A stretch of 64,000 nucleotides of DNA, taken from assembly GCA_000091205.1 (NCBI GenBank), contig AP006502.2. One strand, given 5' to 3'. The stretch is from Cyanidioschyzon merolae (taxonomy: Eukaryota). Under the pieces are notes generated by a model that saw nothing but the letters and a program-made list of their open reading frames with translations, was not told the DNA's origin and did no database searches. This document shows positions 2,707 to 51,444 of this stretch, piece after piece. A program made the translations under genes and the position numbers. Numbering within the stretch: position 1 is the first letter of the stretch; each line of letters begins with the position of its first letter.

Positions 2707-3246
2707 TTCATCATTAACGCTTTCCCGAAATCCAGTATCCGTTCCGAATTCTGGAATCCAAGGTCAATCTAAACATTTTGTCATCTGAAAAACTTCAGTT
2801 ATGCGGAACGCTCCGCGTATTGGACGCCCTGCTCGCAAGCATCTCCAGTGGAGCTCTGGCCGCCTTGTCTGCCGCTAGCATCTTTTGTGCTACTGGGGGA
2901 TCACTGCTCCGACACAATGATAAGGTGGCATGGAAAATGGCCTAGTTCATTCAGTAACCCGCTTACGAGCGAGCAAGATTTGCGCTGATTGGCTAGTGCA
3001 CCCAGATGCACGCAACCGACGGCATGGAATTGGGTCAAGTCTGTTCAAGAATTCGTTCACGAACGAGTAACATTTTTGCTGTCGGGGTATCGTGCCTGAG
3101 TGCACGCATCCTGCACCATGAACGTGAGATCAGGTGAATGGAACAGCCCTGAACGTGTCGTATTCTTTAGTGTCATTTGCAGTGAAGGAAACGGCGCTGG
3201 AACAAAGCAAAAATGACGCCAAAGCGGGGCATCGCCGTCGGATCGG

Positions 3247-4794: not shown

Positions 4795-7069
4795 ACGGGG
4801 ACTTTGTATGGCTGCGTCCTGGTGGGCATCGGTAGAAAGCTGACGAGAGTTACCTATGATTCTTAACGTAGAAGGCGAACATGGTGACGGAATCCGCTAT
4901 GAAGGTAGCGGGCGTCTTGACTTTTGCAGCCGCAGTTGCGTGCATTCATTATTAGCGAATGAGGTTGGCATCCTATCGAGCGTGCAATATCGCTCTCATG
5001 CAGCATATTTGGTGAAACATTTCCAAACAAATGTTTTAGTTTGTTCGACAGTTCAGCTACCTGCAGCATCTCCCGGTCACAGGTATCACTCTTCTTCAGA
5101 TGGACCTGCGGGTTCAAGCTCTGAAATAATTCCTATATGCATTGGATGGATGCGCGCTTTGGAAAAAAATGCAACAAGCGATTGCCTGTCCCATGACGAT
5201 GCAGGAAAGACCACTCGTGGCTAATAGGGCACCGGTTCCGTCTCATACCAGGAACGAGCGAAGGCATAACGCTTCGGGAGAGGTTTCTCTGCGCTCGAGC
5301 CGCTTTTCCAAAGCGCACGCCTAACCGACAAATGAGGAAAACGTGCTTTTTTAGATCATTACGGCTTGCGATTTTCAGACGGGATTCTGTCAGGTCTCAA
5401 GCATGCAGTCTCCGAGCGTGCCAGCGTCTGCTGTATACAAGTTGCCCGATGAGAAGCCTATGAACCGAGGAAGACGAATCTCCCCGCCCTGCATTTTTTG
5501 ACCATCACCATCTCTCGTGATTGATCGTAAAGTCCGTCGAAAAAGCTTGAAAGCATGATGTCGCAGTCGACCGAAGCGTGCTGTTCCGTCAGACGGTATG
5601 GTCCCTGTCACGCAAACTGCTTCTCCACGTGAGCTCTGTTGCACTTCGTTTACCGTTGAATGCTCCACGACCGTCAACATTCATATTCGGCAGTGCGCAA
5701 GCTAAACAGCTCGCCAAACAGAGGGGCTATGAGTCCGCCACTCTTTCCTCGCCATGTTCTATAAGTGGGGAACAGCGAGCGGACGTGTGCCAGCGTGCGT
5801 GATATCTCGAGGGGTTCAACACTTAGAAGTGTATGCAGCAATAAGATTCCACGCGTTCGAAGTACAGCTGTACCGGGCGCTGAGGAAAATGTGCCCAGAC
5901 CCTAGCGCCTTCGTAAACGACCATCGCCAGAACTTTTTCAAAACATCGGATATCGGAACAAGTGGTTCGAGGGAAAGAGGTCGACAATGAAGTTTGCTTC
6001 ATGTAGACCGGATCATGGCTCCACCATAGTTCCGTCAGATGAAACACGAACACGGATCCTTTCAATATGTTCCTGCTTTTCGACTGTGCCCCTGTTTTTT
6101 GGTAGATGAAAGGCCTCAACATTCGAAGTCCAATCATCGCGGCTCACGGATTCATTCGTTGTTTTAGGATTCTCGATCTTCTTCTCGAATAGCTTCCTCT
6201 GTCTCCATGTTGTTGGGTTTGTAAAGTTACGAGTAGCAATATGACTCGCACCGCCATCGACCAAAGGGTTCGTGAAGCTACTGACGTCATTATCCGATGT
6301 ATGCGTACAATACTTTGTTCTTCCCTGTTCCTTACGTGTGGCATGCTCAAATCACGCATGCTTCAAGTTTTGGTCTTCCTGTTTCGAGGCAACTCGTGGG
6401 CGCAACAATTCGAGCAGAGAGATTGGTAATGAGCGAAATACGAAATCGGTTCTGAACGACTTGGTCACAATCCCACGCAAAAAGTTCACTGAACTCCCCA
6501 AGACAACCATTCGGTTCCATGCGAGAAGCAAACCCCCGGCTCTTTGCGGCAATAAACGGAACGGCATTGCGCAACACCATTGCCCATGCCCTGTGATAGA
6601 CTACCAGAAGCACCCGCCCATTCTGTTCAGACAAAAATGGGTTTCGTACTTGGAATGCAGTTATGGTTCACATGGCTTCCAGTGGAGCGTTTGTCAAAGA
6701 TTTCCACGACGGAAGTATAGGGCGCATCGCATTTCTCGACTTGATTTCCAGCCTTTCTTTTCCCCATGGTACTTGGATCATCATGGACGAGCTCGCTTCC
6801 CAGAAATCCTCCTTCGGGCCGCAAAGCTAACACTGGCGCGTCCAGCGGACAGCTTCCTCACCGAGAAGATCCCCCAGAGGAACACGGTGTGCGTAAGGCA
6901 TGGTACCGGGCGCGGAAACCGAGGAGGGCATGGCAACGTGCCTTCTGCACCCGATAGAAGCACGTACCGAGTTACGAAGCACGCGTTTGTCGTGAAACAG
7001 GACAGCTCTCGGAGAAGGGTGTGTGTTGGACATATAGGAACAAACGACTACAGCTAAACTTCACTTGTA

Positions 7070-7220
7070 AAAACCTCGCACCTCGGCTGTACACAAACGA
7101 GACGATGAAAACGACAAGGGATGCATGAATCGCTTCTTTAGCCTGTGGATGCATTGCGCAAGCAATAGCTGGAAACAGCGAAATCAATACTTGAACGCTG
7201 CGATCAATATCCTCCGATGA
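7070..7220 (+). pseudogene. Isolated relic of a TnpB/Fanzor-like C-terminus (zinc-finger remnant plus RuvC-III motif)
   Basis: Frame-0 peptide ...KGCMNRFFSLWMHCASNSWKQRNQYLNAAINILR* fits the TnpB pattern HC..(x)..DRDxNAAxNIL. It is short and surrounded by stops. Confidence 0.35.
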
Positions 7221-9363: not shown

Positions 9364-12300
9364 AGCCCGTGCGGCCCCAGACCGAATGTTGTTTTTGTAC
9401 TGAGTTTTGAAATGCCACGGTAGCTTTTTCCGATCTCAGTGACGAACATAGAATGATCGTGTAAGCTACAGCGCGTGAAGGGAGCACCAGATTCTGAAAT
9501 GCACCGCATGAATGCCGCGTCGGACACTAAGTACTTGACCTCGACATCAGTTGTCGAAGCTGTCGCTTTTCCGACCAACCGTTCTTTCCCAGAGGAGCAT
9601 TTCTCGTAATATGATGCGAGCCAGGTAAGAGAAATATATATAGCATATATGCGTGTGATTTCGATTCGAAAAGCATGCCGTAAAAACCAACTCTCCTTTA
9701 TGGGCATGATCACTGCATCAATGCACGAATTCCAAATCCGGATATCCTGGTGCCGGAGACATCCGTACCATCCAAAGCATTGGGATCTGAGCGTCTTTTC
9801 ATTCGTGGTCACAAAGATGGGTCCTCACTCGACTAGGTATGCGCCCAGAGCGCTTTTGTTTATGCGCTTCCAACGATTCCGGTGGTTCCATTCATGTACG
9901 GCAAGCCGGACGTCTTGAACGACTAGCCTAGACGACGAAGAACCCCGTCTGTCAACGCCGATCCGGAGACTGCTGGGTAGCTCCGCAAGCTTTTGCAGAA
10001 TTAGAACGCCGGAAAGCGCTGTTCGGTTGTTTCGGTCACCGAACCTGGATTGGCGGCTATCCAACCTATCAACTACAAATCACGTCCGAAGCTTTCTCTC
10101 TGCGACCTCGTCCAAAAGGTCCGCTAGGCGGGCTGCGACGGAAACCGTGACGGCCAACGAGTTGTGTTTCATGTGAGACCCAGTTCGTTCGATGTAGCTG
10201 GGTACCGTCAGCGTGCAGTCCTGTGCTTCACTAGAGAGCCTCGGTAAAAGCCCCGGCATCGAGACAATCTTGTGTTCTCTTCCGTTGCCGTGGCGCCGAC
10301 GTTTCGTCGAGACGTGCCCCTCGCCTGAACTCCCGTCTGTGAGCAAGTTGTGTAGTGAAGATTGCTGGAGGGAGGACGCCTAAGCGCCGCTACCGGCAGC
10401 GACTGGTGACGTGTGACCCAAAAGACGCGCAAACAGACATTCTCCGTAAACCTGCGAGAAAGGTGTACCACACTTCTTACATTGCTGCTAGTAAGCATGT
10501 AGCTGCTTACATCGTAGGGGTGCTCGCGTCCCTGTCTGCCCGTTGCGAATCAACGACAACTGGACGATGCCGCTGGTATCGTACGTTGACTATGTTGCTG
10601 AACGAGCGTCGTTCGAATTTCAGATCAGAGGGAGCTGCAATGTCGTTATGAAGCGCATTCCCCAAATCCAGTGTCTTCATGGTACCGGTACGTCTGCCGA
10701 TAGAGAGTGCAGCAGTGCTGAAAGAGCCTGATTGTATGTGCGTCCTTTCGGCGCTACGCGTTTGTCAAGGCGGACTCTGGTTCATCAGCAGAGAAGACTT
10801 GAAGATCCGAAGAGCGTCATCGTGCCCAGCATGCATTGTCTGCTCGCATTCCACATGGTCGCTGCTGAATATGTCCACCATCCCGATGCCGCTGAACGCA
10901 CTGAGCAAATCTTTTGGGTCGAGCATCATTCCCGCAGACCAGTCTGGACTGTGGGTAATGGAGCATAGGGTCAGAAACAGACCAGCGGTTGCTTGCCTGG
11001 ATGCCGGTATCCATCGCGCAACCCGGAACCGTGTCCCATGAAAATGGACCAAATATCCTCTCGCTCTGTTCCTGCCTTTCGAGTTTTCTGCTGAACATCT
11101 CTTGAGAAAGACATCCACGATATTCAAAGTGCAGCAATCGCGGCTTACGAATTTATATGCACTTTAAATATTCTCCGACGCCTTTTCTAAGTAACTGCTT
11201 CGACTCGTTGCTGCTGGAGTTCGTAATCTCACCGGAATCGCCACGATTCACATCGCCATCGGCCGAACGTTTCGTTCCATAACCCTTCTCATCGAAGAGT
11301 TCGTACGCACAAGTCTCCAATCCTCTCCTTTCCTCGCACACGGCATGCTTACGTTACACACTCTTCAGGTTTCCGATCAAGAATTTTCAAGGCAATTCAT
11401 GGGCAGAACAAATCGCGCTGCTGGGTTGGTGAATAAGGATACTCGATGTTGTAATTTGACGACTCGCTCACAAGCTCATGTCGAAAGCGCACAGAGCTTG
11501 TCGGGTCAAGTAATCTATTCCATTCGAAAAACGAATCTTCTCCTCTCCTTAAGCATCCATACAGCTGCATTCTACACCAGCGTGGTCTCCCGCACGAGAT
11601 ATGCTCCCTGAGGCTCTCGTTTCTTTGTGTTGGATGGAAAGCGGGGCCTTCAGCTCGGAATTGCGTCGTTGAACTTATCGCTTCCAGTAAGGTGTATAAC
11701 ACCTTTTCGCACGGAGGAACCGTAGACGAATCGACGTTTCTCGATCTGATCTGCAGCCTGGATTTTGCCTCCGGCACTCGTCTCATCATGGACAACACCG
11801 TGTCCCAGAAACCGTCTATCGAAAGGAAGACTGCTTGTCCGAGGGTGCAGCGGACAGCGCACTCGCCGAGCAAAACGCCCAGAACAATGCAGTGATCGTT
11901 GGGTACTTTATGGGCCGCGCGAACGGGGAAGGGCATTTAGGCTCGCCTTCCGTACTCCTTAGGCGCATGGAACGAGCGATGAGGCATGTGTTCACGTGAA
12001 ACAGGGCGGGCCTCGGAGCAGGTGGAGGTGTGGCGGACGCATGCGAATACCCGATGACAGCCAAATTCCACAGCTGCGATGTGCGCATCACGGCTGCACA
12101 CAAACGAGTTCGTAGATCACAATTTCCGCCCTTGCACCAAAAGCATCGACTGTAACCGCAAGTAACGAAAAAGGGAGTTTATCGCTACCATCAAAATCCT
12201 TCGTCAGGTGAATAGGGAGCTGAAGCGAAAGGGGAGACAGACGTATTTGAAACCTTCCATAAAAGCTAGAAAATAGAGTAGTCACAGAAAAAGCCTGCAG

Positions 12301-12442: not shown

Positions 12443-12625
12443 GATCCCATCGAGCCGATGCCCTCTGTGGAATGGCAAAGCTGTTCTGTTTTTGTGCTGC
12501 ACCCGCTCCAGCTGTTTAGGCGCTGTTGCGGATGCTCTCGGCAGGCGCTAGGCACACGATAGAACGAATGAAACGACCAGTATTTCCGAGAAGAAGTATG
12601 GGTCATGTAACTTGGAAGCAGCATA
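12443..12625 (+). repeat. Copy 2 of the ~190-bp dispersed repeat, 318 bp upstream of the eIF1 ATG
   Basis: See copy 1 (2518-2706). Confidence 0.6.
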
Positions 12626-13284: not shown

Positions 13285-13749
13285 GGAAAATGTTTCACGA
13301 AGGTCTCCAAAACGACCATCAAGTGAAATACACGTGGCGGTGGGGTTACTCCACACAGCTTCCGTACCAGCGTGAGCAGCGGTGTCTGGGCTCTTGGCTG
13401 CTTGCATCAGTGCGCTCGCAGAATACTGATCTTCGGGGAGCGCGAAGCTCCAGGGCAGAACGCGACCTGTGCGCTTCACGGTGGAAGCGGTTTGCCTCTA
13501 TGGTTTGGAAGAAAATAGGTTCGATTGAACCCAATGGTCATGTCCTGCGGAGCGAGCAGGACCAATCGAGGACAGAGAATGTTGCGACGCAGGTAGTGCT
13601 GGATGCGTGGCAAAACATTCAGAGGCAACGGTGGCAATATACCGCCTGCGCTACTGATATGCGTGTAAAAGGTAAGATGAATGGACTGGACAAAAGAAAT
13701 CGCAGCCTCGCCCAGACCTTAGGATAATTGCCGTATTCAATGCTGTGAC

Positions 13750-15205
13750 ACCCCCGATGCGTGCCATCGAATGCTTTTTTGTCAGTGTAGAGCAGGAGAT
13801 GGAAATCAAGATGCAATACACCGTAGAGATCGTAGGCGATTTCCCTGCAGGATAGATATTCTTAACTGAACAGTGCAAGGAGGACTGCATTAATCCGTCA
13901 GGTCAGTCATACCGAAATACACAGATAATCGACGAACGCTGACAGAAACAAATATATGCGCTCCACGCTAATAACAGATATTCTCAAAGCGTGCTTGCGG
14001 TCCTTGGTAGTAAACGGACCATTGATCACCTCACGAAGAGCAATAGCGACGATAGCGGACACATCGGCGTCTCTGTTTCTCAGCAGTTGGATCGTCCGGT
14101 CCCGCAAACAATGGGGTACAGTCGCAAAATTCCTAGTTCAAGCACCGCTATCTTTCACTGAAATCGCAATGGCAGAATTCCTAGAAGCTTGCGATCGGTA
14201 TGAAGCACAGATAAGTCGGTTTGTTTTTTTTTCAGTCGATGAGACTTCCCTCTGACAAAACGGTCTCAGCGCATATGGGTACTCGCGGAGCAGGAAGCCC
14301 CCTGTATGCACGATGGAAATCGAGAAGAACGAGGACATCTTCCTCTGTTCTAACTGCAGGGAATTCATCTGGCGGCCTCCGTTTCGCTCGTAGAGAGGGC
14401 TCATCCAACAGCATCGTTTTCGTAGCATCATTCAAGACTTTTCCCCTTACGTCTAATGACTTCCATCTATCGGACAACGGAAAATTTCACCGTTCTCTGT
14501 GCGTTGGAACTTTTGCCGACGCTAACGGGGTAGAGCTGCTTTTCATTCCTGTGTAGGCCCCGTGGTTCAACTCCATCGAAGGAGCGTTTTCTATCGTGAA
14601 ACTTAACGATCGCGTCGCTGGACAAGTCCCTACGGCTTCCAGCACACTGGGGCACTTATTGACTTTCTAGCTCTGCGAATTTCCATACCTAAAGGCATAA
14701 AGAGCAGCTTTCATGCGAAGAATTACAAAATCCAAGGGAAGGGTATGGAGATGGAAATCGAGGATCCTGGAGGCCCGCCATCCTCGGCTGCCGGAAAAGA
14801 ACGAATAGAATCCTCTTCTCGCGAAAAGCCGAACGAAGAAGAGCCAGTGACGAAGAAGAAGATGGGAAATGGGTAAGGACAGTGGTTCGCCCGATGGTAC
14901 GATGACGAGACTGTTGTGACACAGGGAGCACGAGTACTAGTAATCCTTGCAATAATGTGTTCAACCAGCGGCGGGAAACGCATGGAGTTCTTGAACCGAG
15001 ACTTCAACGCCGCCATTCATATCAGAAGATGTGCGGTGCTCAAGACAAGATCCGCGGAGCTGACACGACCCAACTTCCTGGGGCAGTCTCTCAGGCTCGA
15101 AGTGCACGGTGAAAAACTGCAACCGATAGCAGGGGAACGGTCAGAAACGGCTGGGAGGCGCCTGTGAGTTGGTATATATATGCAGCCTATGGCAGCGAAA
15201 CGTTC
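13750..15205 (+). mobile_element. Long copy (A) of a TnpB/Fanzor-like DNA element, ORF degenerate (frameshifts and stops). Fills the spacer between the eIF1 and CCT2 3' ends
   Basis: C-terminal peptide CSTSGGKRMEFLNRDFNAAIHIRRCAVL gives the RuvC-III DRDxNAAxNI hallmark. About 1.4 kb is collinear at nucleotide level with copy C (49415-50800, minus). The 3' module ctctcaggctcgaag...ggctgggaggcgcctg...tatatatg is shared with copies B, C and D. Confidence 0.55.
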
Positions 15206-15287
15206 TCGCGCCATGAACCGCAGGCAGGATCTGGTGACTTGCATTTCGAGTTTCTTCTGCGCATGACTGGGACGTGCAAGGACCATT

Positions 15288-16901
15288 TTACATATGAGGG
15301 TGTGCAGGTTCCATTTTCCTAGGCGCTGATTTGATAACATCATCCACGCGGAGGATCATTTCAGCTGCTTCTGTTGCGGATGAAAGCACGTGTGCTTTCA
15401 GTCGGAAAGACTCCACGACACCTAAAGCTCGGGCATCGGCGATAGAACCCGAGAGGATATCCAAACCAGCCGAAGTGTTGCCCTGAGCGTGCGCAGCTCG
15501 AAGCTCCGCCACGAGACTCGTCGCATCGAGACCCGCGTTTTCCGCGATAAGGCCTGGAAGACTGCGGAGAGCGCGAGCAAATGCCTCCGCCGCCAGCGCG
15601 GCTTTGCCGCCCATACGTGCCGCACACGCATCCACTGCATTCGCCATGAGTGCCTCCGAGCAACCGGCTCCCAAAACTAGTCGGGAGTCTACGACGAGTT
15701 GGCTCAGTACACAGAGGGCATCGTGCAACGAACGCTCAGCTTCATCGAGAATCTGCTGGTTCGCACCCCGGATGACGATCGAGCAAGCTTCTGGCGCCCG
15801 ACATCCCTGAAAATGCAGTACAGCGTCGTCCCCGATCATGATCTCTTCGATAACGGCACATTCACCGAGCCGAATGGCCCCCGGACTATCGAAGGTACTG
15901 ACGATTTCACCGCCGGTCACAAGCGCTAGGCGCTCAATGCCATCGAAATCTGCGTGTTCAATACTGTTGATACCATTATCCGTGAAAAATTGCTCCGGAC
16001 GATTGTAAATGAGTTGACGATTGACAAAAACATTGCATCCGTAACCGAGAATACGACGACATTTCTCTATCATCTTTTCCTGCTCCGCTTGTTCTATTTC
16101 CGCAACACGTGCAATTGACTCTGTCCGAACACGAGCACCATAGATTTTGATCTTATCCGTATCCATCGGTGTGTTGGCAATCAAAATTTTTGCATTTTCG
16201 ACACGTTTCTTCTGGCCTACGCCGAAGCGCTTCTCCAGAATGAAGCCTTCCGCCAGGAATGACTCATGAAGGGCACCGCCGGGTTTTTTAATGATTTTAA
16301 TATGATCCAGGTTCGTGCTACCTTGCAAGCGGATCACAGCATCTACCGCGATCTTCGCAAAGAGCTCCCTGCACTGCGACAGAACTTTCGAGGACAGCGC
16401 CGTGCGCGCAACGTTCATAAGCGCCTCGTAGCCAGCCGGAGTGTCTTTCGCGGGTAGGGCCATGGCGGCTTCTTCGAGTGCTTTCAGCGCCTCTCGATGG
16501 GCAGCACGGTATCCGGCTATGATCAACTGAGGGTGCAAGCGCCTTTCGAGGAGCTGTTCCGCTTCACGCAACAGCTCACCCGCTAAACAGCAAACCGAGG
16601 TGGTGCCGTCCCCGATCTCATCGTCCTGCACCAGAGCAATATCAACGAGGATCTTCACCGCTGGGTTATCAACGTACACAGACTTTAGGATTGTTGCACC
16701 GTCATTCGTAACACTGACCTCCCCAGAAGGAGAGAGGAGAATCTTATCCATCCCACGGGGCCCTAGCGTCGTTTTCAGCAAGTCCGTAATAGCCAGAGCA
16801 CCAGTGAGCAACGATAGGCGCGCGTTCTCTCCCTTCTCTTCGGTAGAACTCGACTTGAGGACTTTCTGGAGTCCAGTCGGTGGTAGCCTCAACTGCGTCA
16901 T
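15288..16901 (-). CDS. CCT2: T-complex protein 1 subunit beta (CCT2)
   Basis: 537 aa. [31 protein letters not shown]...[11 protein letters not shown]...[11 protein letters not shown] is collinear with CCT beta through to the C-terminus. Confidence 0.92.
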
Positions 16902-20508: not shown

Positions 20509-22025
20509 TGGACTCAGAAACGTCCAATGGTGGAACTCCGTTGTCATCTACCGATTGCCGACGAAAACCCTTCCCAGTGTATAAATACGGTGCTCCCTCG
20601 TTTCTGGATTGCTGAAACCGACCTCACCAATGACTTCATCCAGGAAATCATCCAATATCCTGGCTCATGGCCACAGATGTTTCTCGACGAACGTCGATAG
20701 CGTTGCAGCACAACGCCAGTACCGCGTACGAAACGATTTGCCTGAAAGTTCGGTCGGCAGAAAGTCGCAGGACGCTCCGCAAGCACCAGATATTACCGAA
20801 TGCCGATCGAGTCGCTCAAGTCCTAGTACACCGTGTGCTTGTGTACATTGCGGGGTGTGGCGTATCACAGCAAAGCAGGCGCTCAGCTTGGATTGCCTCG
20901 CCATCTGGTGTTCGGTCTGCTTGCCATACGCCATGCTGCGCATCCGGCACGGAGTTGCGCTGCTCTTGTTCTCTACCAGTTTCAGCAAGCACCCGTGCTC
21001 GTGATGTGTGGATGTCGTCCTGAGCGCATCGATGGGAGTGTTCCAGGGTCCATTCTCGCACACGTTGGACGCCCTCGTTGAAGGGGCAGGAATGCAGGTG
21101 CTGTTCGCTACCGGACGTGTATCGCGCTGGACTCGCGCCAAACGACCCGACTTGTCAGCCGTTTCCATTGCCGCCCTGTAAACGAGGAACCTCCGGTGAG
21201 ACGCGTAAATGCACTTCGTAAAGTCGCTCGAGTGCTTCGCGCTTGCTCACAAACACCAGCTGCAGCTCGCCAAGGAGCCCGCGCACCACACTACACATGT
21301 GTCTCCGTGCATCTCGTGGATCTACGTGTAACGTACGCGCACGATACCCAGTAGACGCGGGACGAGCAAGAACGGTCGGCTTCGGCGGCGGACGCTGCGT
21401 CGCTCTGGAGGGATCAGCTCAGGGTCGCTCTCGCAGGTGTCTTGCCTGCGAGCGGCGGAGTCCCTCTTTAGTGAGTACCCGTGTATCGGCGTATCAGTTC
21501 TCTCCCGAGTGAGGTCTTGTCGAGTGCGAGAAACATCCGTTCGTGGTGTAGCACAGGCTGGCCATTCCGGCACGGAATCCTCAGCATATGGATCAATGCG
21601 GGACGGTCTCGAGTAGAGGCATGCGTTTCTCGTTGTCCAACCGCGTCTCTTCATCAGCGTTTGCATCAGCCATGCGAAAGCTGTGCTTTCTTTGGTCTCT
21701 TCTATGGTATTTCTCGGAAACGTGTGTTATGAAATGAATCGACGAGGAGGTAGTCGTTCAGCTAGAAATTCAAAAATTCTGTTTTCGGTGCTCGACATTC
21801 AACATAAGGCGTAGGCGGTGTGATGCCCATGGACCGTCTGCGTGCAGGACACTTGACTTGCAGAGGTAAACCCATTTTCGGAAGCGAAAGCGGCAGAATC
21901 AAGTCTTTCCGCGAACATTCTCTAGTCGGCAGCACATATTTCTTTTATTGCATACTTGCGAGAAAAACTAGCGAATAGGCGGGTTGGTACAAGTGCTCCA
22001 GAATTCACTGCTCCATGTGTAACCA
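20509..22025. repeat. Copy 1 of a 1,517-bp direct repeat (R), non-coding. Begins 38 bp after the stop of the 19041-20471 gene
   Basis: ORF-track ORFs at 20544-21732 recur identically, offset +4645, at 25189-26377. Boundaries were set by eye at tg(g/t)actcag...tgtgtaacca. About 6 mismatches in total. Confidence 0.85.
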
Positions 22026-23364
22026 ATTCTTTTCTGATGACAAAACGTTTACATCGACCATGGATCCGAGGATTCGGAAAGTATAATGGCTTTCGGGAAA
22101 GCGTCCATCATGAAGCATCTAGCTTCAAGTTCTATCACCCATACATGCTCTCTGATATACTGGTCGTTTCGTATGTTCTATAGTGCGCCGACTAGCTGTT
22201 TTGAGCACCCGCCGTAGCGCTTATATACCGCTGAAGCAGGTGCTGCACGGAGACAGAACGGCTTTGGCATACCGCTGAGGGCGTCGGCTCGAGGCGTGGT
22301 TCATCGGACACGGAGTCGGAGTACTTAATCATTCTAGGAGCCTGGAAGCTGCGCGGAGAGACGCACTGCCTGCGGCGGCACGGTGCGATATACTGGGCGT
22401 CCACTGCGACCAGGGCGACGCCCAGACGCAGCATACACGCTCCTAGTCCCAGATTGAATTGCATTGCGGACGAGTAGCTCAGGTTTCTTTAAAGAACCCG
22501 CCACTGAAGGAAGCATGAAGCACTAGCTAGCCCCGAAGACTCGTCCGGCTCGCGGGACCTTCCGCCTAGAAGGTAAACTTTCCAAGATACTGAAACTTTT
22601 CCCCATTTCAACGCTTACAATTAAGATCAAACGAAACTGTTATCGAGTTGCTAGTCAGTGCATAGTTTCTGTTTTTTTTTCGCATCGACGTCGATGCTCG
22701 GTGGATCAGGGCCTAGTTCCATTCAGCGGCAGCGACGGCGTGCCAGAATCCTGATGGAAGTGCTTTAAGAGGCTGCTTGTTTGAAGGTTAGCCTATTTGC
22801 GCTCGGGTCGCTGCTCTTTCTATATTGTCCGGGAAGAGTTCTTCGACAAGCATTGACCTTAGACGGCGAGAAGCAGCGCTTAGAGTCACAGCAAAGCTGC
22901 TTTCTGCGAAAACTGCGCGCAGGACAAGCGGTGACGCTTCCTTCGAGAGCGGCGCTCTTGGTTTTGGTGCGACAGGAACGGCTCGCAGTTCGGTAGACTT
23001 GGGTTTGGGTGGAGCTCGGAGATTTAAGGTGGTGCGCGAGATTGATAAGCGTAAACGAGTGGCGCGTTCCGCAACGTGCGATTCTTCGTGGCACCGAGGA
23101 GAACGCACGCATCCTCTAGCTTGAGCGTCACGCATTTTGTTTTGCTTACGTTGAGGCCTTCATAGATTGGTGGCGTCTTTGACAAGATCCGGGAATTTTT
23201 CGTTGCCCAGGGGCGAGATTTTTGAGACCAGGGGGTATCCCAGCCAAGTTACCGGAACTGCACCGCACTCGTGGCCGGTGTTCAACGAACGGCGATTTTG
23301 AGAGTCTTCTGAGCACGTATCCAGCGGATATAGTAGCGTTCACGAGACACGTACGTGCTTACCC

Positions 23365-25080
23365 GTGAACCCCTGTCGCCTCTCGAAGGGCATCATGGAG
23401 CATTCCGGCAGCCGGGCCCCGTTGGATCCTGAAGGCGCGGGTGCTCGAACACAGGACTCTTTTCGCGTCTTCTACAGCCAAGATGATGTGAATGGAGGCA
23501 AGCTGTACATAGGCGAAAAGCTCAAGTCCAAAGTTGTGCGTAAGCTTCACTCCCTGTCCATTGAGGAAGGAAACGCGCGAATAGCGGAGTCTTCAGACAG
23601 TGCATTGGAGGAAGGCACGTCCGATGCCTCTCGCGAGGGCTCTTTTGCGCCCTCTCCACGTGCGTCTTCTGCAAGAGCAGCTGAGACTGTAGAGTGCCCT
23701 AAGGTACTATCAGGAGAGAGCGCTCGGGATGTCGCCGCCCACAAGGACGAGCCAATGGTGTCGATAGCGGGGCCTCGTGACCACGCCTCTGCGGAAGCGA
23801 AATCGATCGATAACAGGACTTGGGGCGCAGCGCGGAGCTCAAAAGATCTCTCGTTAGATGATCCGATCAGACCCGTTGTATCTGCACATCCAGTGGAAGC
23901 GCATTCGGATCGACATACGTTTGCGTTCGAGAACTTGAGCAGTCGCCCGCACATCAGAGAGTCTCGTCCAAAGTTCATCTCGAAGTACGTACTTGGGGCT
24001 CGCCTTGGCGAGGGCGCCTACGCCAAAGTCAAGGAGGCCATGGATACGACCACGCTTAGAATCGTTGCTTGCAAAATTGTTGACAAACGCTTCCTACGCA
24101 AAGTGCGCGGTGGCCTCGAAAACGTCCGACGTGAGATCGCCATTATGCGGTCGCTGGATCATCCAAACATTGTGCGCTTGCTAGATGTTATTGATGGTGA
24201 GGATTCGATGAAACTCTACATATTCATGGAGCTCAGCAACGGATGCACTGTTCAGGAGCTCATGGAGCGTGCACCTCAAAAGCGGCTACCACCTGGACAA
24301 GCCCAGTCTTTTTTCGCGCAACTGATCGAAGGACTTGCATATATTCATTCTCGGAATATCGTGCACCGAGACATCAAACCCTCGAATCTTATGCTTGCCA
24401 CGGATGGTGTTCTGAAAATCGCGGACTTTGGTGTAGCCGAATTTCTCGACAAATTCGATGCCGAGGGGCGTATCACGAGGACCGTTGGCTCGCCTGCATT
24501 CCAGGCACCAGAGATTGCGCGGGGTAATGGCATGTTTCTGGGGCGAAAAGTCGACGCCTGGGCTGCCGGCGTCACGCTCTACATGATGCTTACTGGCGAG
24601 GCGCCTTTCAAAGGATCCAATCAGTTTGAACTCTTCCGCAATATAGGCCGGGGCGAGTTTCATATGCCATCTGATTTGATCGACGAGGAATGTCAGGATC
24701 TCTTGCGGAGACTCATGGAAGTGAATCCCGAAGTCCGGAGCACCGTCGACGACCTTCGTGATCACAACTGGTTGCGAAAACGCTACGACGATGAGCATGC
24801 ATGGATTCCGATTCCGCGACGTCATCCCAAAATCCTCGACATGGTCTCTCGCCTGTACGAAGACGATCCCGAGATGTCGACTCAGAGCACGAGTCCCATC
24901 GAGTCAGACGCCGAGAAGAGCAGCGTGCAACGAGCGCAAAGACCCACATCCATCGTCACCACCCAACTTGGTGATCGTCGGAGCATTACGAATGAGGGAG
25001 CAGCAGAACCTACTCTGGAACAGGGCGAATCCGGATCTCCTGGAGAGAGCTCATGGCGCAAACGATGTACTTTAATGTAG
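23365..25080 (+). CDS. STK11: Serine/threonine kinase LKB1/STK11 orthologue
   Basis: Kinase domain: YVLGARLGEGAYAKVKE..., HRDIKPSNLML, LKIADFGVAE, GSPAFQAPEIA, KVDAWAAGVTLY, LFRNIGRGEFHMP. The activation-segment and G-helix motifs are LKB1-specific and are not those of the fungal Sak1/Elm1/Tos3 kinases. Confidence 0.85.
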   Translation: MNPCRLSKGIMEHSGSRAPLDPEGAGARTQDSFRVFYSQDDVNGGKLYIGEKLKSKVVRKLHSLSIEEGNARIAESSDSALEEGTSDASREGSFAPSPRASSARAAETVECPKVLSGESARDVAAHKDEPMVSIAGPRDHASAEAKSIDNRTWGAARSSKDLSLDDPIRPVVSAHPVEAHSDRHTFAFENLSSRPHIRESRPKFISKYVLGARLGEGAYAKVKEAMDTTTLRIVACKIVDKRFLRKVRGGLENVRREIAIMRSLDHPNIVRLLDVIDGEDSMKLYIFMELSNGCTVQELMERAPQKRLPPGQAQSFFAQLIEGLAYIHSRNIVHRDIKPSNLMLATDGVLKIADFGVAEFLDKFDAEGRITRTVGSPAFQAPEIARGNGMFLGRKVDAWAAGVTLYMMLTGEAPFKGSNQFELFRNIGRGEFHMPSDLIDEECQDLLRRLMEVNPEVRSTVDDLRDHNWLRKRYDDEHAWIPIPRRHPKILDMVSRLYEDDPEMSTQSTSPIESDAEKSSVQRAQRPTSIVTTQLGDRRSITNEGAAEPTLEQGESGSPGESSWRKRCTLM

Positions 25081-25153: not shown

Positions 25154-26670
25154 TGTACTCAGTAACGTCCAATGGTGGAACTCCGTTGTCATCTACCGAT
25201 TGCCGACGAAAACCCTTCCCAGTGTATAAATACGGTGCTCCCTCGTTTCTGGATTGCTGAAACCGACCTCACCAATGACTTCATCCAGGAAATCATCCAA
25301 TATCCTGGCTCATGGCCACAGATGTTTCTCGACGAACGTCGATAGCGTTGCAGCACAACGCCAGTACCGCGTACGAAACGATTTGCCTGAAAGTTCGGTC
25401 GGCAGAAAGTCGCAGGACGCTCCGCAAGCACCAGATATTACCGAATGCCGATCGAGTCGCTCAAGTCTTAGTACACCGTGTGCTTGTGTACATTGCGGGG
25501 TGTGGCGTATCACAGCAAAGCAGGCGCTCAGCTTGGATTGCCTCGCCATCTGGTGTTCGGTCTGCTTGCCATACGCCATGCTGCGCATCCGGCACGGAGT
25601 TGCGCTGCTCTTGTTCTCTACCAGTTTCAGCAAGCACCCGTGCTCGTGATGTGTGGATGTCGTCCTGAGCGCATCGATGGGAGTGTTCCAGGGTCCATTC
25701 TCGCACACGTTGGACGCCCTCGTTGAAGGGGCAGGAATGCAGGTGCTGTTCGCTACCGGACGTGTATCGCGCTGGACTCGCGCCAAACGACCCGACTTGT
25801 CAGCCGTTTCCATTGCCGCCCTGTAAACGAGGAACCTCCGGTGAGACGCGTAAATGCACTTCGTAAAGTCGCTCGAGTGCTTCGCGCTTGCTCACAAACA
25901 CCAGCTGCAGCTCGCCAAGGAGCCCGCGCACCACACTACACATGTGTCTCCGTGCATCTCGTGGATCTACGTGTAACATACGCGCACGATACCCAGTAGA
26001 CGCGGGACGAGCAAGAACGGTCGGCTTCGGCGGCGGGCGCTGCGTCGCTCTGGAGGGATCAGCTCAGGGTCGCTCTCGCAGGTGTCTTGCCTGCGAGCGG
26101 CGGAGTCCCTCTTTAGTGAGTACCCGTGTATCGGCGTATCAGTTCTCTCCCGAGTGAGGTCTTGTCGAGTGCGAGAAACATCCGTTCGTGGTGTAGCACA
26201 GGCTGGCCATTCCGGCACGGAATCCTCAGCATATGGATCAATGCGGGACGGTCTCGAGTAGAGGCATGCGTTTCTCGTTGTCCAACCGCGTCTCTTCATC
26301 AGCGTTTGCATCAGCCATGCGAAAGCTGTGCTTTCTTTGGTCTCTTCTATGGTATTTCTCGGAAACGTGTGTTATGAAATGAATCGACGAGGAGGTAGTC
26401 GTTCAGCTAGAAATTCAAAAATTCTGTTTTCGGTGCTCGACATTCAACATAAGGCGTAGGCGGTGTGATGCCCATGGACCGTCTGCGTGCAGGACACTTG
26501 ACTTGCAGAGGTAAACCCATTTTCGAAAGCGAAAGCGGCAGAATCAAGTCTTTCCGCGAACATTCTCTAGTCGGCAGCACATATTTCTTTTATTGCATAC
26601 TTGCGAGAAAAACTAGCGAATAGGCGGGTTGGTACAAGTGCTCCAGAATTCACTGCTCCATGTGTAACCA
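25154..26670. repeat. Copy 2 of the 1,517-bp direct repeat (R). Begins 74 bp after the LKB1 stop codon
   Basis: See copy 1. Identity about 99.6 %. Confidence 0.85.
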
Positions 26671-29128: not shown

Positions 29129-32100
29129 GCAGACACACCCTTCTCCGGGTTTGCGCTGTGCGTAAGTCTCCTATCGACAAGGTAAGCGCGTTTGAAAAAC
29201 CCGCTGTACGCCCTTCTGAAGTCAACTTTTCGAATGAAGACCCAAGGGGCTTGTAAAAAAACTGGCAGTACGGCTCGTGGTGCGATTGCTGTGCTGCCCC
29301 AAAGCTCTGGCAAGCAGCTCTGCCGCGAGTGCTCGCTGCCTACAGTCTGCCTTTTAAGTGACACCACACTCGACGACTGCTGATGCCAGTCTGCTTCCTC
29401 TGAAGACCTTCAAAGGCTTACCACAAGTGTTATCGTCTAAACGCTCCCAGTGTGTGGACGCTGAGGTGCCTCAGAGTATGCGGCGAAAACTCGCCCACAA
29501 CACGTCAAACATTCGAAGCGCATACCGCGGGATACTCGATGGTGCGTTCATGAGGCCGATTCGCTGCGCAGCGCGCGGCTGCCGCGGGCCTCAGACGCCA
29601 ACGATCTCAAATTGCGACGGTGATGGCGTGCGCGTCTGCCCGAGGTGCGCGCAACAGTCGCTGGCAATGATGCGGAGTTCTTCGGGATTGGGCTGGTGCG
29701 GAGGCCGCAGCTGGAGGCGGCCAGCGTAAGGATCAGATCCTCTGCACAACGGACTATGAAACGTATTGGGGCCGCGCCCCAGGTCAGATACCTCTGTGAT
29801 AGACATCGAGGTAACGCGCTCCACTGCATGAGTATTGGAACAGAGATTCCACGCATGAACCAGGGTAGCATCTGTACGTAGGGGGCATAGCTGAATCGAA
29901 CAAGCTCATGATCTTCGATGGAGCACTACTCCAGAACGGATAGAGCCTGCAACAGCCAGCAGTGAAACAGAGACCTTCTACCTGGTTCCTGGAGGCTTCC
30001 GCTGCTCGAAACAATCCTGACTTGATATAGGGTCCTGGAATGTGAAAATTTCCTGCTTCAGCGATAGCAGGGATATGAGGCGGTTGCATGCGCCGCCCCT
30101 GACGTTGAGAATCTTGTAACACGGGGCGCGTCGCTTCCTGCGAATCATGGCAGTGGCTCCACGGATGAGGCTATCTCGGCCAGCTTGGCTGCGATCTCGT
30201 GCTGATTTCGCTGCAATTGTCTCGCGTTCCCGGCTCGAATGCTTCCTCAGGCAATGGCGGGGGTCTCTCACCGCCCCAAGGGCCGTCCATGGAATCCCAC
30301 TCGTGCGATCTGGTTGAAAACGTTCCATATATAAATACAATGGAGCTTTCGAATTTCTGGTACACACTGTTTGTCGGAAATAAGCTCGTGATGCGGGCTT
30401 CCTCTCGTTCGCATTGTCGTCCACGTGACCGAGTAAACATCTAAAGCGATCAACTCGAACTGAGTCTCATGGAGCGATCCACGGTGCGCTGCATTATGCG
30501 TCCTGCGACCAACGCAGACCGCAGTATCCGCGAGGCAGCAATTGCAGATCCTAGTGACCGTGGAGCGCCTCGGCCAGACGCAAACACTGCGTCTCTGACA
30601 TTAGCGTCGTGCCGGGTGTTCTGTCAAGCAAAATTGTCCAGTGAGTTTACTACCATAGCATTCGGGGTAACAGTCTAGACTTCGTGTTGAAGGACGTTCA
30701 ATTGCCACGGCCGACTGTGAGTACTCCAACGAACAGGCTATTCGTCGCGAGGATGAGGTGCCCAGCGATTGCTGTACGATCTGTTCGTTCTATTCGCTTG
30801 GCTCGAGCCAATAGACCTATTGCGGGCAAAAAGGGCTCAAACCCATCGAAGCCAGGATCCTTTATGGAAACTCTAAACGCTACCTATTAGAACGGTATCT
30901 CTGTATTCAGCAGGGAAGCTGAAAATGAACAGGCTCAAGCGGCTGCACGAGAGCTGCCGCTGATCAGCGCTCATACACCACCTGCTTGGCGACCGAGGCC
31001 ACTTGTTACAGCCTGTCCAGTATCCCTGTAAGGAACAGAGGCCCAGTCCGGTAGACCTGCGAATTCGTACGGATATCCGCCGGTTGCGACGCATCCCAAC
31101 GGACATCTGGTCGAAGATCCCACAGACAGGGATCCCCTGGCTCGTATAAACGATCCTAAACCCAAAACATTCATGTTCAAACCCGAATTCGATGCTTTCG
31201 CAAAAAAACGCTTTTCTCAGAAAAGAACATTATCGACAAGTACCTGCCAGATTGATTTGATGGACAGAGCAGTTGCACTCACCATAGACACCTGATTGCT
31301 TGATTGATATCGGCATCTTGGAGAGCGTTTATCATGTTTCATCCTACCTCCGGGTTTTACCAGCTACCACAGGTACCTCCCTTGCGAGACAGCGGCCATT
31401 TCGTACGATCCACTCAGCGCGAAGCCTGCTACGGGCGTCCACAGTGGCGCCCACAGCGCCGGCGCGGATGCAGGACGGAGTCAGAACGCCTTTACCACAC
31501 CACTGGAGAAATCAGCTCGAAATGTGATTCACTCGTCACAGGGTCGGGACGCGTGGATATTCTGGGATATAGTAGACCGCTCAGACAGACCTACTGCTGG
31601 CACTGGCGCGAAACGAATCTCCAGGAGACCGTATCGACCAGGGCGGGGCCGAGACGCAGGCCGCCCTCTCCGGCTACAGAAGAGACTCTATTGCGGAGAG
31701 GTTGCTCCGGATTTGCCACAGCTTTCGGTACTGGAGGCGCACGGTGCTCCATTCTGCATACTCCTCCAACTGGCAGGATCTTTGTCCTAGACAGTAACCC
31801 TCCGAATGTACATAAATCATTCCTCGGTTCATCTCTTGCCTGGGACGCGGGGAACATCGATGAACTACTTGCCAGCTAGCACACAGTTTCTTTTGCCATT
31901 TTCTTTCTAGCTGCTGTCCAGTGGTTAGGTTCTCTCCCTAAAACGAGCCCATAGCGGACGACGCGGCACCGAGTACAGCTGCATCGGACGCGTCTCGCTA
32001 CACTCCTGTCAGGCAAAATTTGCACGATTCCTCTCACGTATCTGGGATATGCACACTAAAGCTTGGACCTCGCTCGTGTCGTCAAAACCAGCCTACGCAA

Positions 32101-38948: not shown

Positions 38949-39019
38949 TAGACTGCTTCGCTCACTTGTGGTTGTCTAGAGCGTATGTATGCTCAGTGAA
39001 ACTAAAAAAGTCCCACGAC

Positions 39020-39515
39020 CGTGTAGTGTATATATGCATCCCATTGCAGATGCCTCCCGGACTTTTTCGACCGGCCGCCCACTACTGGTTGTAACGTCAT
39101 CCCGTACAATTCGACCCTGAGCGGTTCTCCCACAAAGTCGGCTCGTATCAGCTCCGGGGGTCTCTTGTCCAGCACTGCACATCTCCCGATGTTGATAGCA
39201 GCGTTAAAGTCTCGGTTCGCGAACGCTATGCGTACCCTGCCTCTGGTTGAACTCACCATTGCAAGGATTCCTCGAACTTGTGTCCTCTGTTCTACTACAG
39301 TCTCGACCTCGTCCCGTCAGGCGAGCACCTTTTCTCGTCTACCTGTCCTCTTTTTCTTCGCCGCCGCGCGCTTTCCCTTGCTCGATGAAGGGCGAGAAGA
39401 GGATTTTTTCCTTGTTTTCGGACAGCCGGCAATGAGGCCCTCTAGGATCCGCGACTTCCATCTCTATACCTTAGCCTTTTTACATTTGTAAATGAACGCA
39501 CTTCGAGAGCATTTG
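39020..39515 (-). mobile_element. Short, internally deleted copy (B) of the TnpB/Fanzor-like element: 5' terminus joined to the 3' ~470 bp
   Basis: Peptide RIAFANRDFNAAINIGRCAVL, the 3' module and the ...gcatatatac terminus. The 5' junction aaatgct(c/t)t(c/t)cg matches the 5' end of copies A and C. Confidence 0.5.
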
Positions 39516-40678
39516 CTCTAAACCACGAAAAAAGCATTAAATGATACGCACTTGGCGCCAGAGCACAGTTGAGGTGAAGTGCTATGACAAGAATCCTGCA
39601 CGTGCCAGGTCCGCAGCACGTCTAACATGCTCGTTGCTTTGCTCAGGGCAGAAGGTTGAGGCGCGAGCCTGATTAGCGTTGACGCGATCTGTGTTCCCAT
39701 GAGCGAAGCTACATTCTGGTGCATCAGGCGCAGTTGAGCGGATATCGGTGAGCTCACAAGTCGCCACAGGGTATGGTGCTGTGTGCTAGCCAGTCACCGC
39801 CCGCCACGTAGAACCCCGATAGCAGGACACGCAGGATACGATTCGGAACGACGAGCAACCGGGGATCGGTGCTGACCTTCTTCAGCGCGTCCAGAGCGGA
39901 GGCGAACCCTGTGCTCTATGTTTTTTCGTTCTCGATAATAGTTCCAAGACGCTCAATAGCTTGCGCACCCGCTTCGTGTCCAGGATCCGTGAGCGTGCTT
40001 CCACCAAGCGCCAGGTGCGGCTGTCGTTCTGGAACGCTACCAGCTGTTGCGAAGCAATCGTCAGCGTCAAGGGTGCAGGCATTTCTCGAATACGGCAGCG
40101 TGGAGTAGCTCTGAAACGCACGTTCGTACTTCAGGGTGCAAATCGCGACCTGGTAGCCGTCGATGTCCGCGATGGTGCGCAGAGAAGATACCAAACGCAC
40201 CTATCCATCCATCTTCCCAACTATGCATGTGTGCATGTGTGCGTAAAAGCAAGCAGGCGGCTATCCATGCGTCTATGTGCACAGGCAACCAGCAAGCAAG
40301 CAATCAAGCAAGTTGCTTTCTCAGGTAGAAGACGATATTGTGACCTGTGCGCCACGGTCTTGTGGCCATTCAGCAGCTACTGGTATAGGCAACGCAGCAG
40401 GTGCAGGAAATGACTGCGGACTCCAGCGAGCGCTGTATCGATATTGGGACACATGTTGTGAGAGCTGAACTGCAGTTTATTGGTGTGCGTGTCCTTCCCT
40501 GCGGGGTTTCCGTCCGTCTGGTATGGGTCTCCCCATGAGCGCGTACGCAATCAGGAAACATCGCTTCGTAACGCTCGCCGGTTCCTTTCGATGACGTTTC
40601 TGCGCTCCATGCGGAGCCTCTACATAGCCGTATCTCGTTCATGATGCTAATGCATGACTTTCCATGATCATGCATACC

Positions 40679-51430: not shown

Positions 51431-51444
51431 TCATCGTCCATACA

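Follow-up and report, generated by a model that had tools for sequence, protein, structure and literature searches.

A decayed composite element with a DDE transposase pseudogene and a gutted Fanzor1 gene between eIF1 and CCT2 of Cyanidioschyzon merolae

In Cyanidioschyzon merolae the convergent genes eIF1 and CCT2 are separated by a spacer that encodes a peptide resembling the RuvC-III hallmark of TnpB-type nucleases. This raises the question of what kind of element lies there and what else it carries. We examined the locus within a 64,000-nucleotide stretch of DNA (the window), in which an initial annotation, made from the sequence alone, had placed a degenerate TnpB/Fanzor-like (IS605 OrfB-like) element. 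We conclude, with a probability of about 0.9, that the spacer holds a fixed, dead insertion (copy 1) from a family of DNA transposons that is specific to the Cyanidioschyzon lineage, carrying a DDE transposase pseudogene together with a gutted Fanzor1 gene.

Results

The eIF1 and CCT2 proteins encoded in the window are identical to the C. merolae 10D proteins BAM83285 and BAM83286 (1.62-Mb contig), matches that identify the window, as judged from its genes, as nuclear DNA of C. merolae 10D. The spacer that the element occupies measures 2003 bp in C. merolae against 384 bp in Cyanidiococcus. The insertion is absent from this sister genus, the comparison being one of spacer size only, with non-coding DNA that is unalignable and so provides no base-level empty site.

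Copy 1 extends from about 13725 to about 15218 on the + strand, limits that are set by the extent of conservation in an alignment of 18 loci and that lie near the initially proposed bounds of 13750-15205. The loci derive from a scan with an IUPAC DNA pattern, which returned 66 metagenome loci with 18 distinct units among them; being mostly metagenomic, these may include more than one Cyanidioschyzon-like genome. At nearly all of these loci a C-terminal Fanzor fragment comes after the DDE gene on the same strand, and at none does a full Fanzor gene follow it. The 1,531-bp consensus of the 18 loci matches 13737-15204 at 79.9% identity in a single alignment of 1,508 columns, and copy 1 shares 1,428 bp of collinear sequence (70.4%), spanning both junctions, with a paralogue from a metagenome contig (L011). 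The family is thus multi-copy, with at least 18 distinct loci, and the earlier inference of a genuine mobile-element family is borne out.

Three further copies are present in the window. Collinearity over 1.4 kb had been reported with the copy at 49.4-50.8 kb; the two are indeed collinear, but in two blocks of 835 and 184 bp (13758-14592 against 50794-49961 on the - strand, 72.7% over 843 columns, E 1e-126; 14921-15102 against 49696-49513 on the - strand, 72.8%), separated by about 330 bp of unalignable sequence. The shorter 3' recurrences were correctly recognized, with 14734-15109 aligning to 39478-39102 (-) at 71.8% identity and 14744-15201 to 50968-51420 (+) at 67.2%.

The TnpB/Fanzor assignment in the initial annotation is right for the C-terminal peptide and wrong for 13811-14649 (+), about 60% of the 1.4 kb, which is a DDE_3 transposase pseudogene of Tc1/mariner/IS630 type. 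The gene was identified with Pfam PF13358 (E 1.4e-9 on copy 1 and 1e-19 on the family consensus, taken as the reconstructed ancestor) and by tblastn with the 282-aa ancestor, which finds matches in three frames of copy 1. Relative to the family consensus, the DDE gene of copy 1 has 4 stops and 2 frameshifts. The ancestor gives a weak match to HTH_Tnp_Tc3_2, contains the motifs VDETSF, LLDNVAFH and NPIEG, and can be aligned along its length with the Mariner transposase of PUl-1 (27% identity, E 7e-14), features from which we place the gene, by transposase type, in the Tc1/mariner/IS630 superfamily. Even the majority consensus requires a frameshift, and hence the copy that was amplified was probably non-autonomous.

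The downstream part of the element (14745-15167, +) derives from the CMe-1 Fanzor1 gene by an in-frame deletion; it was identified by tblastn with the CMe-1 protein, and its junction was located from the translations. Residues ~1-56 are joined to residues ~644-729, about 590 central codons (~57-643) having been deleted in frame. CMe-1 residues 1-36 match at 14745-14861 and residues 647-729 at 14928-15173, the latter with 58% identity over 83 residues (E 1e-22). At the DNA level CMe-1A positions 895-966 match 14734-14805 (82%) and positions 2849-3083 match 14933-15164 (72%). The + strand peptide of the initial annotation, CSTSGGKRMEFLNRDFNAAIHIRRCAVL, is present inside the ORF at 14916-15167; the sequence and its ORF translation place the RuvC-III motif relic NRDFNAAIHI at 14994-15023 (+), in a column block conserved across the family (D725, N727 and A729 in the numbering of P0018, an intact relative). 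The peptide is genuinely what is left of the RuvC-III region in a Fanzor1 protein, within the TnpB superfamily.

Of the nuclease, copy 1 has kept nothing but the strand and helix of RuvC-III, together with the tail. From the catalytic triad, copy 1 keeps the RuvC-III Asp alone (NRD, 14994-15002), the RuvC-I Asp and the Glu lying in the deleted part. The cysteine-containing segment previously read as a zinc finger is not one: the Cys of CSTSGG is specific to copy 1, the family consensus at this point being VSTTSDG without Cys, and the true Cys/His cluster of the family (THHELGC...EKCQ, residues ~620-637) falls within the deletion. The deletion took RuvC-I together with the zinc-finger region and the catalytic Glu, so nuclease function is impossible for copy 1. 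The copy is dead, as had been proposed, but not through frameshifts in the Fanzor frame; these are confined to the upstream 840 bp, in the DDE gene, and none breaks the Fanzor frame, which was inactivated mainly by the in-frame deletion together with a single stop (TAA, 14875-14877).

The ends of the element are shared with those of CMe-1A. Alignment of 5' regions defines a terminal module of about 70 bp (13725-13793, +) that is common to CMe-1A (positions ~790-870) and to the short DDE-less copies. Next to it, at 13795-13810 (+), is the 16-nt direct repeat GGAGATGGAAATCAAG, whose partner at 14747-14762 is identical at 15 of 16 positions, lies at a spacing of 952 bp and overlaps the Fanzor start codon, such that the pair brackets the DDE segment. 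The 3' tail (15168-15218, +), delimited from the 3' ends of the 18 loci and from the other window copies and CMe-1A, contains the subterminal palindrome GCGAAACGTTCTCGC at 15195-15209 and finishes at the element end ...CATGAAC. Over the 18 loci the element ends are TAGTCTTTCAACTCA (5') and GTTTCACTGAC (3'). No terminal inverted repeats (TIRs) are found in 13600-15350, and there is no shared flanking dinucleotide or consistent TA target-site duplication across the 18 loci, which is at odds with ordinary Tc1/mariner transposition. In a search for a structured omega-RNA at the 3' end of the gene, RNAalifold returned -7.8 kcal/mol with an unfavourable covariation term for the 3' regions of seven, decayed, copies, and Rfam gave no match.

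Non-inverted ends common to full, short and DDE-bearing elements could be explained by the action of one Tc1/mariner-like, or co-opted, enzyme. On this basis it is conceivable, though we regard it as doubtful, that the DDE_3 protein was the missing partner transposase of the CMe-1 Fanzor1, that it moved all of these elements, and that the amplifying master copy retained the in-frame mini-Fanzor because of some cis-acting or regulatory function. The CMe-1 Fanzor1 family was left unclassified by Bao & Jurka (PMC3627910).

The other window copies add detail to the history of the family. Copy 2 (49396-50826, -), identified by tblastn and alignment to the family consensus, belongs to the same DDE-bearing family, with a DDE pseudogene at 50742-49907 and a Fanzor part (49794-49442) that retains CMe-1 residues ~612-729 and has a different internal deletion. 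Since it keeps residues ~612-646, which the common deletion removed, its history must have included a recombination event or a second deletion at the least. Copy 3 (38993-39578, -) is a solitary short deleted-Fanzor element, located with the consensus (positions 1010-1530 against 39503-38993, 74.7%) and with its 5' extent taken from the alignment to metagenome locus L012; it matches CMe-1 residues 639-734 with E 3e-30. Copy 4 (50847-51438, +) is a short DDE-less deleted-Fanzor element defined by alignment to the family consensus (positions 1-55 at 50847-50901 and 1010-1527 at 50926-51434) and to CMe-1A (positions 785-969 and 2839-2963). Copies 3 and 4 share the deletion breakpoints of copy 1 (CMe-1A ~969/2840).

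Copies 4 and 2 are arranged head-to-head, about 20 bp apart, and a similar pairing is seen in metagenome loci L012 and L024. The pair at 49.4-51.4 kb suggested that Fanzor 3' regions might act as long TIRs around a DDE gene, an idea that we rejected because the pair is more readily read as two adjacent elements, each with a normal 5' module and with their 5' ends facing.

The window also contains a relic of a second, divergent Fanzor1 lineage (20700-21159, -), found by tblastn and comprising the last ~150 residues with a decayed RuvC-III. It matches residues 525-676 of P0056 at 43-45% identity and CMe-1 at 31%. An identical twin at 25345-25804 (-) lies inside a 1.5-kb duplication (20509-22025 and 25154-26670, 99.6% identical).

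Neither the CMe-1A consensus as published nor locus L005 with its intact Fanzor contains the DDE segment, and short copies 3 and 4 lack it as well. Together with the direct repeat that brackets the segment, this pattern favours the view that an unrelated Tc1/mariner transposon inserted into or beside a Fanzor relic here, leaving two independent elements. We consider such a coincidence very improbable, since the order, spacing and junctions of the two parts recur at 18 distinct loci and L011 is collinear through both junctions. Likewise, each DDE copy whose 5' end was examined starts with the CMe-1A-type module, neither TIRs nor a TA duplication delimit the DDE segment itself, and only ~15 bp separate the shared module from the DDE ATG. 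One ancient nesting event, after which the composite was amplified, is conceivable and would be a variant of the composite-element explanation that we prefer. An intact DDE gene joined to a full-length Fanzor was found neither in the 66 metagenome loci nor beside the intact Fanzor of L005.

With the reading frame preserved across the deletion, the mini-ORF runs uninterrupted for 143 codons in the consensus of the 18 loci, as would suit a functional ~143-aa mini-protein made up of the basic N-terminus, the RuvC-III helix and the C-terminal tail, for example a regulator of intact Fanzor or of transposition. All four window copies have an open frame over the C-terminal ~85 codons, copy 1 has one stop within 141 codons, and pairwise dN/dS among the dead copies is 0.4-0.85, below 1. 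These signs of selection are suggestive, but over the 18 loci stops and frameshifts are more frequent in the mini-ORF (13.5 per kb) than in the DDE pseudogene (8.5 per kb) and divergence is higher (0.27 against 0.19), a pattern of no preservation on which we rejected selection on the mini-ORF. Moreover, dS is near saturation, a dN/dS below 1 is expected if divergence came partly from functional ancestors or gene conversion, and the catalytic and RNA-binding core is gone. We therefore think it very unlikely that the deleted Fanzor encodes such a protein, slightly more so than the independent insertion discussed above, and retain the reading of a dead composite element.

Assignment of the family to Fanzor1 could not be made with profiles. 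The proposed check with Pfam OrfB/TnpB profiles gave no match for any copy: fragments of the four window copies hit DDE_3 only, with no TnpB-like match at E<=1. The intact CMe-1 consensus reached E 0.52 against PF07282, short of the cut-off, as did P0018 (E 0.23). Pfam and PDB sequence searches with the intact CMe-1 consensus and a 12-sequence family profile likewise gave no TnpB/Fanzor match. With the profiles silent, homology was established through the published CMe-1 protein and through structure comparison. P0018 is 71% identical to CMe-1, and its structure model is of moderate confidence (pLDDT 63.5). In a Foldseek search of the PDB with this model the top seven matches were all Fanzor1 (SpuFz, GtFz and PpFz; E 7e-13 to 1e-9, probability 1.00), with low TM-scores of 0.25-0.37; the next match was CasPhi, at E 0.18. 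The family alignment conserves D484 (DPG), E656 (DEFRT) and D725 (NRDxNAA), and its canonical RuvC-II position is occupied by a Gly, within VVAYGAG. This arrangement is the rearranged active site that PMC10530073 reports for Fanzor. By predicted fold, the nuclease lineage is Fanzor1, an assignment of the CMe-1 family that draws on CMe-1 homology and on a moderate-confidence model with low TM-scores.

The similarity is almost certainly not a chance short-motif resemblance in intergenic or host-gene sequence, as the ~10-residue motif and the lack of a Pfam TnpB-family match in any fragment might suggest: CMe-1, a Fanzor1 protein of the same genome, matches the four window copies by tblastn at E 1e-8 to 3e-30, excluding the host-gene-family similarity that the initial annotation had named as a refutation, matches to consensus DNA flank the deletion, and the significant PDB matches of the modelled intact relative are Fanzor1 structures only.

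Discussion

The family identity of the element, the identities of both its genes, the deletion and the decay are shown by the alignments above. From these we read copy 1, in 5'-to-3' order, as a ~70-bp CMe-1A end, a DDE_3 pseudogene, a Fanzor 5' leader, a gutted CMe-1 Fanzor1 gene and a 3' end of CMe-1A type that bears a small subterminal palindrome. The Fanzor1 gene has lost ~590 central codons in frame, leaving its basic N-terminus and the last ~90 residues with RuvC-III. The intact ancestor was probably an omega-RNA-guided RuvC endonuclease resembling the solved Fanzor1 proteins, and the copies may have been mobilised in trans by the DDE enzyme, or by whatever moves CMe-1A. Today the element presumably has no effect other than a longer intergenic spacer.

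There are practical consequences. In genome annotation three further sites of the window, like the eIF1-CCT2 spacer, should be treated as transposon relics rather than genes. In addition, Pfam TnpB profiles miss the present Fanzor1 lineage altogether, so that a negative profile search would wrongly have refuted real homology.

The link to IS605 drawn in the initial annotation finds no support. The three + strand frames of copies 1 and 2 have no Pfam match to a Y1 (HUH) or serine TnpA, DDE_3 being the only match. The family shares with IS200/IS605 TnpB (OrfB) a distant RuvC nuclease ancestry and a RuvC-III motif of the DRDxNAAxNI type. It differs in the lack of a Pfam OrfB_IS605 or OrfB_Zn_ribbon match, in its eukaryotic nuclear context, and in a protein family that models as Fanzor1 with a long N-terminal extension.

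The solved Fanzor1 nucleases SpuFz1, GtFz1 and PpFz1 (PDB 8GKH, 9CEU, 9CER and 9CF1; Saito et al. 2023, PMC10432273) have the same rearranged RuvC site, with DPG, a Gly at the canonical RuvC-II position, DEFRTS and NRDxNAA. Sequence identity to them is only 12-15%, and the CMe-1 family is without the second zinc-finger CxxC pair.

Associations of Fanzor1 with transposases of this type have been described before, in the Fanzor1-Mariner chimera PUl-1 of Pythium ultimum (Bao & Jurka 2013, PMC3627910) and for Fanzor1c, with Mariner/Tc1 (Jiang et al. 2023, PMC10530073). PUl-1 has the same gene order and strand, with a Tc1/mariner-type DDE gene upstream and Fanzor1 downstream. PUl-1 possesses a full Fanzor and is flanked by TA duplications, with TIRs of 24 bp; the window family shows neither TIRs nor TA duplications, its Fanzor is gutted, and both of its genes are dead.

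The closest relative is CMe-1A of the same genome, listed with ~150 copies in the study in which Fanzor was defined (Bao & Jurka 2013, Mob DNA 4:12, PMC3627910), so the novelty implied by the initial annotation does not hold. CMe-1A is 3,169 bp long, encodes a 734-aa Fanzor1 protein, carries a 5' TE-N2_CMe segment and has no TIRs; its target-site duplications are not determinable and no transposase is listed (PMC3627910). Fanzor fragments of the window are 40-60% identical to it in protein and 70-79% in DNA; the two share ~70 bp in the 5' leader and ~270 bp at the 3' end, and TIRs are absent from both. In contrast to CMe-1A, copy 1 is only 1.5 kb long, lacks Fanzor residues ~57-643 and the TE-N2_CMe part, and has a DDE_3 pseudogene that the paper does not list. 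On these sequence likenesses copy 1 belongs to the CMe-1A Fanzor1 element family of C. merolae. The finding is thus real but ordinary, Fanzor-Mariner/Tc1 chimeras and rhodophyte Fanzors both being in the literature. The Fanzor family of C. merolae has been known since 2013, and the DDE-carrying deletion subfamily is a minor addition to it. It is of modest value in that its 1,531-bp elements, which join a DDE gene to a deleted Fanzor at 18 or more loci, tie the CMe-1A ends, which are unclassified, to a gene for a DDE_3 transposase.

A gutted Fanzor1 gene in a repeat between eIF1 and CCT2

The repeat under study lies between genes for eIF1 and CCT2, whose proteins have exactly the sequences of BAM83285.1 and BAM83286.1, respectively, from Cyanidioschyzon merolae 10D. 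Hot-spring metagenome contigs carry loci identical or near-identical to this one. The repeats described in the initial annotation are borne out when the window is compared with itself, except that the 1.4 kb of continuous identity to the copy at 49-51 kb is instead two collinear blocks, with 13758-14592 matching 50794-49961 (minus strand, 72.7%, E 1e-126) and 14921-15102 pairing with 49696-49513 (minus strand). The 3' ~450 bp of the element is found again at 39478-39102 (minus strand) and 50968-51420 (plus strand). The peptide first noticed is indeed on the plus strand, inside an ORF at 14916-15167, with NRDFNAAIHI at 14994-15023.

The paper that defined Fanzors reported one Fanzor1 family in C. 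merolae, CMe-1A, with a 3,169-bp consensus, about 150 copies each roughly 80% identical to it, and a 734-aa protein, CMe-1 (Bao & Jurka 2013, PMC3627910). CMe-1A was described as having no terminal inverted repeats (TIRs), no determinable target-site duplications and no associated transposase, and its class was given as unknown (PMC3627910). We compared the DNA and protein consensus sequences from the supplements of that paper with the window. CMe-1A 895-966, comprising the leader and first codons (MEKEVEDPGGP), aligns to 14734-14805, and CMe-1A 2849-3083 aligns to 14933-15164, where CMe-1 residues 647-729 match at 58% identity (E 1e-22). Both blocks, with breakpoints near 969 and 2840 unchanged, are also present at 39.0-39.6 kb and 50.8-51.4 kb. 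According to the translations, the reading frame is kept across the deletion, which fuses the N-terminal ~56 residues (...YDEMVV) to ...RRAKVRGLLALVS (from about residue 644). One stop, at 14875-14877, interrupts the resulting 141-codon frame (14745-15167). Lost with the deleted portion are the RuvC-I Asp, the catalytic Glu and the Cys/His cluster. The cysteine that had suggested a zinc finger is specific to this copy, because the family consensus at that segment is VSTTSDG.

The Pfam profile check proposed in the initial annotation gave no TnpB-family match for any fragment, and even the intact CMe-1 consensus and P0018, an intact database relative, reach only E 0.52 and 0.23 against PF07282. 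Searching PDB sequences with a single sequence or the family profile also gave no match. A large protein search recovered intact relatives such as P0018 (752 aa, 71% identical to CMe-1) and more distant lineages at 31-43% identity. Conserved in the alignment of relatives are D484 (DPG), E656 (DEFRT) and D725 (NRDxNAA), and the canonical RuvC-II position is occupied by Gly, in VVAYGAG; together these make up the rearranged active site described for Fanzors (PMC10530073). Of the PDB matches to the AlphaFold model of P0018 (pLDDT 63.5), the best seven are all cryo-EM structures of Fanzor1 proteins (SpuFz, GtFz and PpFz; E 7e-13 to 1e-9, probability 1.00), with CasPhi following at E 0.18. Despite low TM-scores to the Fanzor1 structures (0.25-0.37), this exclusivity identifies the CMe-1 family as Fanzor1. 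The copy between eIF1 and CCT2 is a gutted relic of that family, and the core of the initial annotation, a dead TnpB/Fanzor-like mobile element, was right.

An upstream DDE transposase within one composite element

The 5' 840 bp (13811-14649), previously assigned to TnpB, instead matches Pfam DDE_3 (PF13358; E 1.4e-9, and 9.5e-5 for the 49-51 kb copy). Database relatives are nearly all decayed fragments from Cyanidiales metagenomes; one that is intact, a transposase of 307 aa, is from an AT-rich organism. Five copies were used to reconstruct a 282-aa ancestor, which matches DDE_3 at E 1e-19, with a weak Tc3-type HTH match, and carries the D, D and E motifs VDETSF, LLDNVAFH and NPIEG. It aligns along its length to the Mariner-type transposase of PUl-1 (27% identity, E 7e-14), a Fanzor1-Mariner element of Pythium (Bao & Jurka 2013, PMC3627910). 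The DDE segment starts about 15 bp past the shared 5' module. A 16-nt sequence, GGAGATGGAAATC[A/G]AG, is repeated in direct orientation on either side of the segment, the downstream copy overlapping the Fanzor start codon.

Collinearity with the copy under study extends across 1,428 bp, both junctions included, at a paralogous locus (L011) adjacent to a NUDIX gene. A conserved 22-nt pattern, scanned against metagenome contigs, gave 66 loci, nearly all with a C-terminal Fanzor fragment 100-350 bp downstream of the DDE segment on the same strand; none of the 66 has a full Fanzor there. Once near-identical contigs were removed, 18 distinct units were kept, and in their alignment conservation climbs from background (about 0.48) to 0.65-0.9 across a sharply bounded 1,531 bp. 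The consensus aligns to 13737-15204 as a single block (79.9%), and the copy is therefore one full-length member, spanning about 13725-15218. The short copies at 38993-39578 (minus strand) and 50847-51438 (plus strand) represent the same element with the DDE segment (positions 56-1009 of the consensus) missing. The copy at 50826-49396 (minus strand) has the DDE segment and a different Fanzor deletion, retaining residues ~612-646, and so its history includes more than one deletion, or recombination.

Within 49396-51438 a DDE-bearing and a short DDE-less element lie head to head, with about 20 bp between their 5' ends. Metagenome loci (L012, with 5' ends about 80 bp apart, L024, L027, L038 and L062) show the same pairing at about 70% identity. 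Two explanations suggest themselves: copying of the pair as a unit, or a site favoured for insertion at the 5' end.

Ends, insertion and decay

The copy under study has no TIRs, and no flanking duplication is consistent between the 18 loci. These share the ends 5' TAGTCTTTCAACTCA and 3' ...GCGAAACGTTTTCGC..TTCACTGAC, the latter including a small palindrome. This palindrome, GCGAAACGTT(C/T)TCGC, is subterminal, about 10 nt short of the 3' terminus (15195-15209 in the window; also L040, L056, L059 and L044).

In Cyanidiococcus yangmingshanensis the convergent eIF1/CCT2 pair is kept, with another Cpn60_TCP1 gene upstream. The spacer there is 384 bp without an element (5343-5726 in L013 and L014), as against 2003 bp in the window, which places the insertion in the Cyanidioschyzon lineage alone. 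The difference is one of size, without a base-level empty site, because the non-coding spacers align only ~37 bp past the CCT2 stop codon.

At least one frameshift is still required to read the DDE gene in the majority consensus, and the mini-Fanzor consensus frame is open (143 aa). From the DDE frameshift we infer that the amplifying copy was probably already non-autonomous, allowing for possible indel errors in the consensus. Frameshifts in the Fanzor ORF, the proposed cause of death, are replaced by the in-frame deletion and single stop; the copy's two frameshifts sit in the DDE gene, together with four stops. A functional mini-ORF looked plausible from the C-terminal Fanzor frame, open in all four window copies, and from dN/dS of 0.4-0.85 among dead copies (0.10 between intact genes), but across the 18 loci the mini-ORF is both more disrupted than the DDE gene (13.5 versus 8.5 disruptions per kb) and more divergent. 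The retained 3' region gave no conserved RNA structure and no Rfam match. Taken together, these results lead us to regard the element as inert.

Other repeats in the window

TE-N2_CMe, the repeat that makes up the first 635 bp of the published CMe-1A consensus, occurs apart from Fanzor parts in four copies or fragments, 66-83% identical, at 2529-2785 and 12450-12616 (minus strand) and 22036-22681 and 31273-31823 (plus strand). An intact Fanzor locus (L005) begins at CMe-1A position 648. TE-N2_CMe thus seems to be an element in its own right, often adjoining CMe-1 and not part of it. In a metagenome DDE copy (L006, about 1025-1300), homology stops just past the transposase ORF and TE-N2_CMe-like sequence follows (cf. 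CMe-1A 22-105), a further junction joining the DDE-bearing and TE-N2_CMe families.

On either side of a protein-kinase gene (23365-25080) lies one copy of a 1,517-bp direct duplication (20509-22025 and 25154-26670, 99.6% identical). Both contain, on the minus strand, a relic from a second Fanzor1 lineage (20700-21159 and 25345-25804), 43-45% identical to the protein P0056 and only 31% to CMe-1; Bao & Jurka named only one Fanzor family for this genome (PMC3627910). The window also contains a 60-bp unit in perfect tandem duplication (43525-43584 and 43585-43644, 100%) and a weak dispersed repeat (6723-7101 versus 11727-12108, 64% over 390 columns, E 1e-11).

Comparison with known systems

The nearest known entity is CMe-1A itself, from the same genome, so that the Fanzor family is not new (PMC3627910); the DDE-bearing deletion subfamily is unreported as far as that 2013 paper goes. 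The proposed link to IS605 was not borne out. The 3' palindrome recalls, by analogy, end structures of TIR-less elements (Helitron, IS200/605), and differs from the hairpin at the published CMe-1A 3' end (GCCGCCA...TGGCGGC). The order of a DDE gene upstream of Fanzor1 is like that of known Fanzor1-Mariner chimeras such as PUl-1 and of Mariner/Tc1 associations (PMC10530073), but unlike those chimeras the window family is without TIRs and TA duplications, and its Fanzor is truncated.
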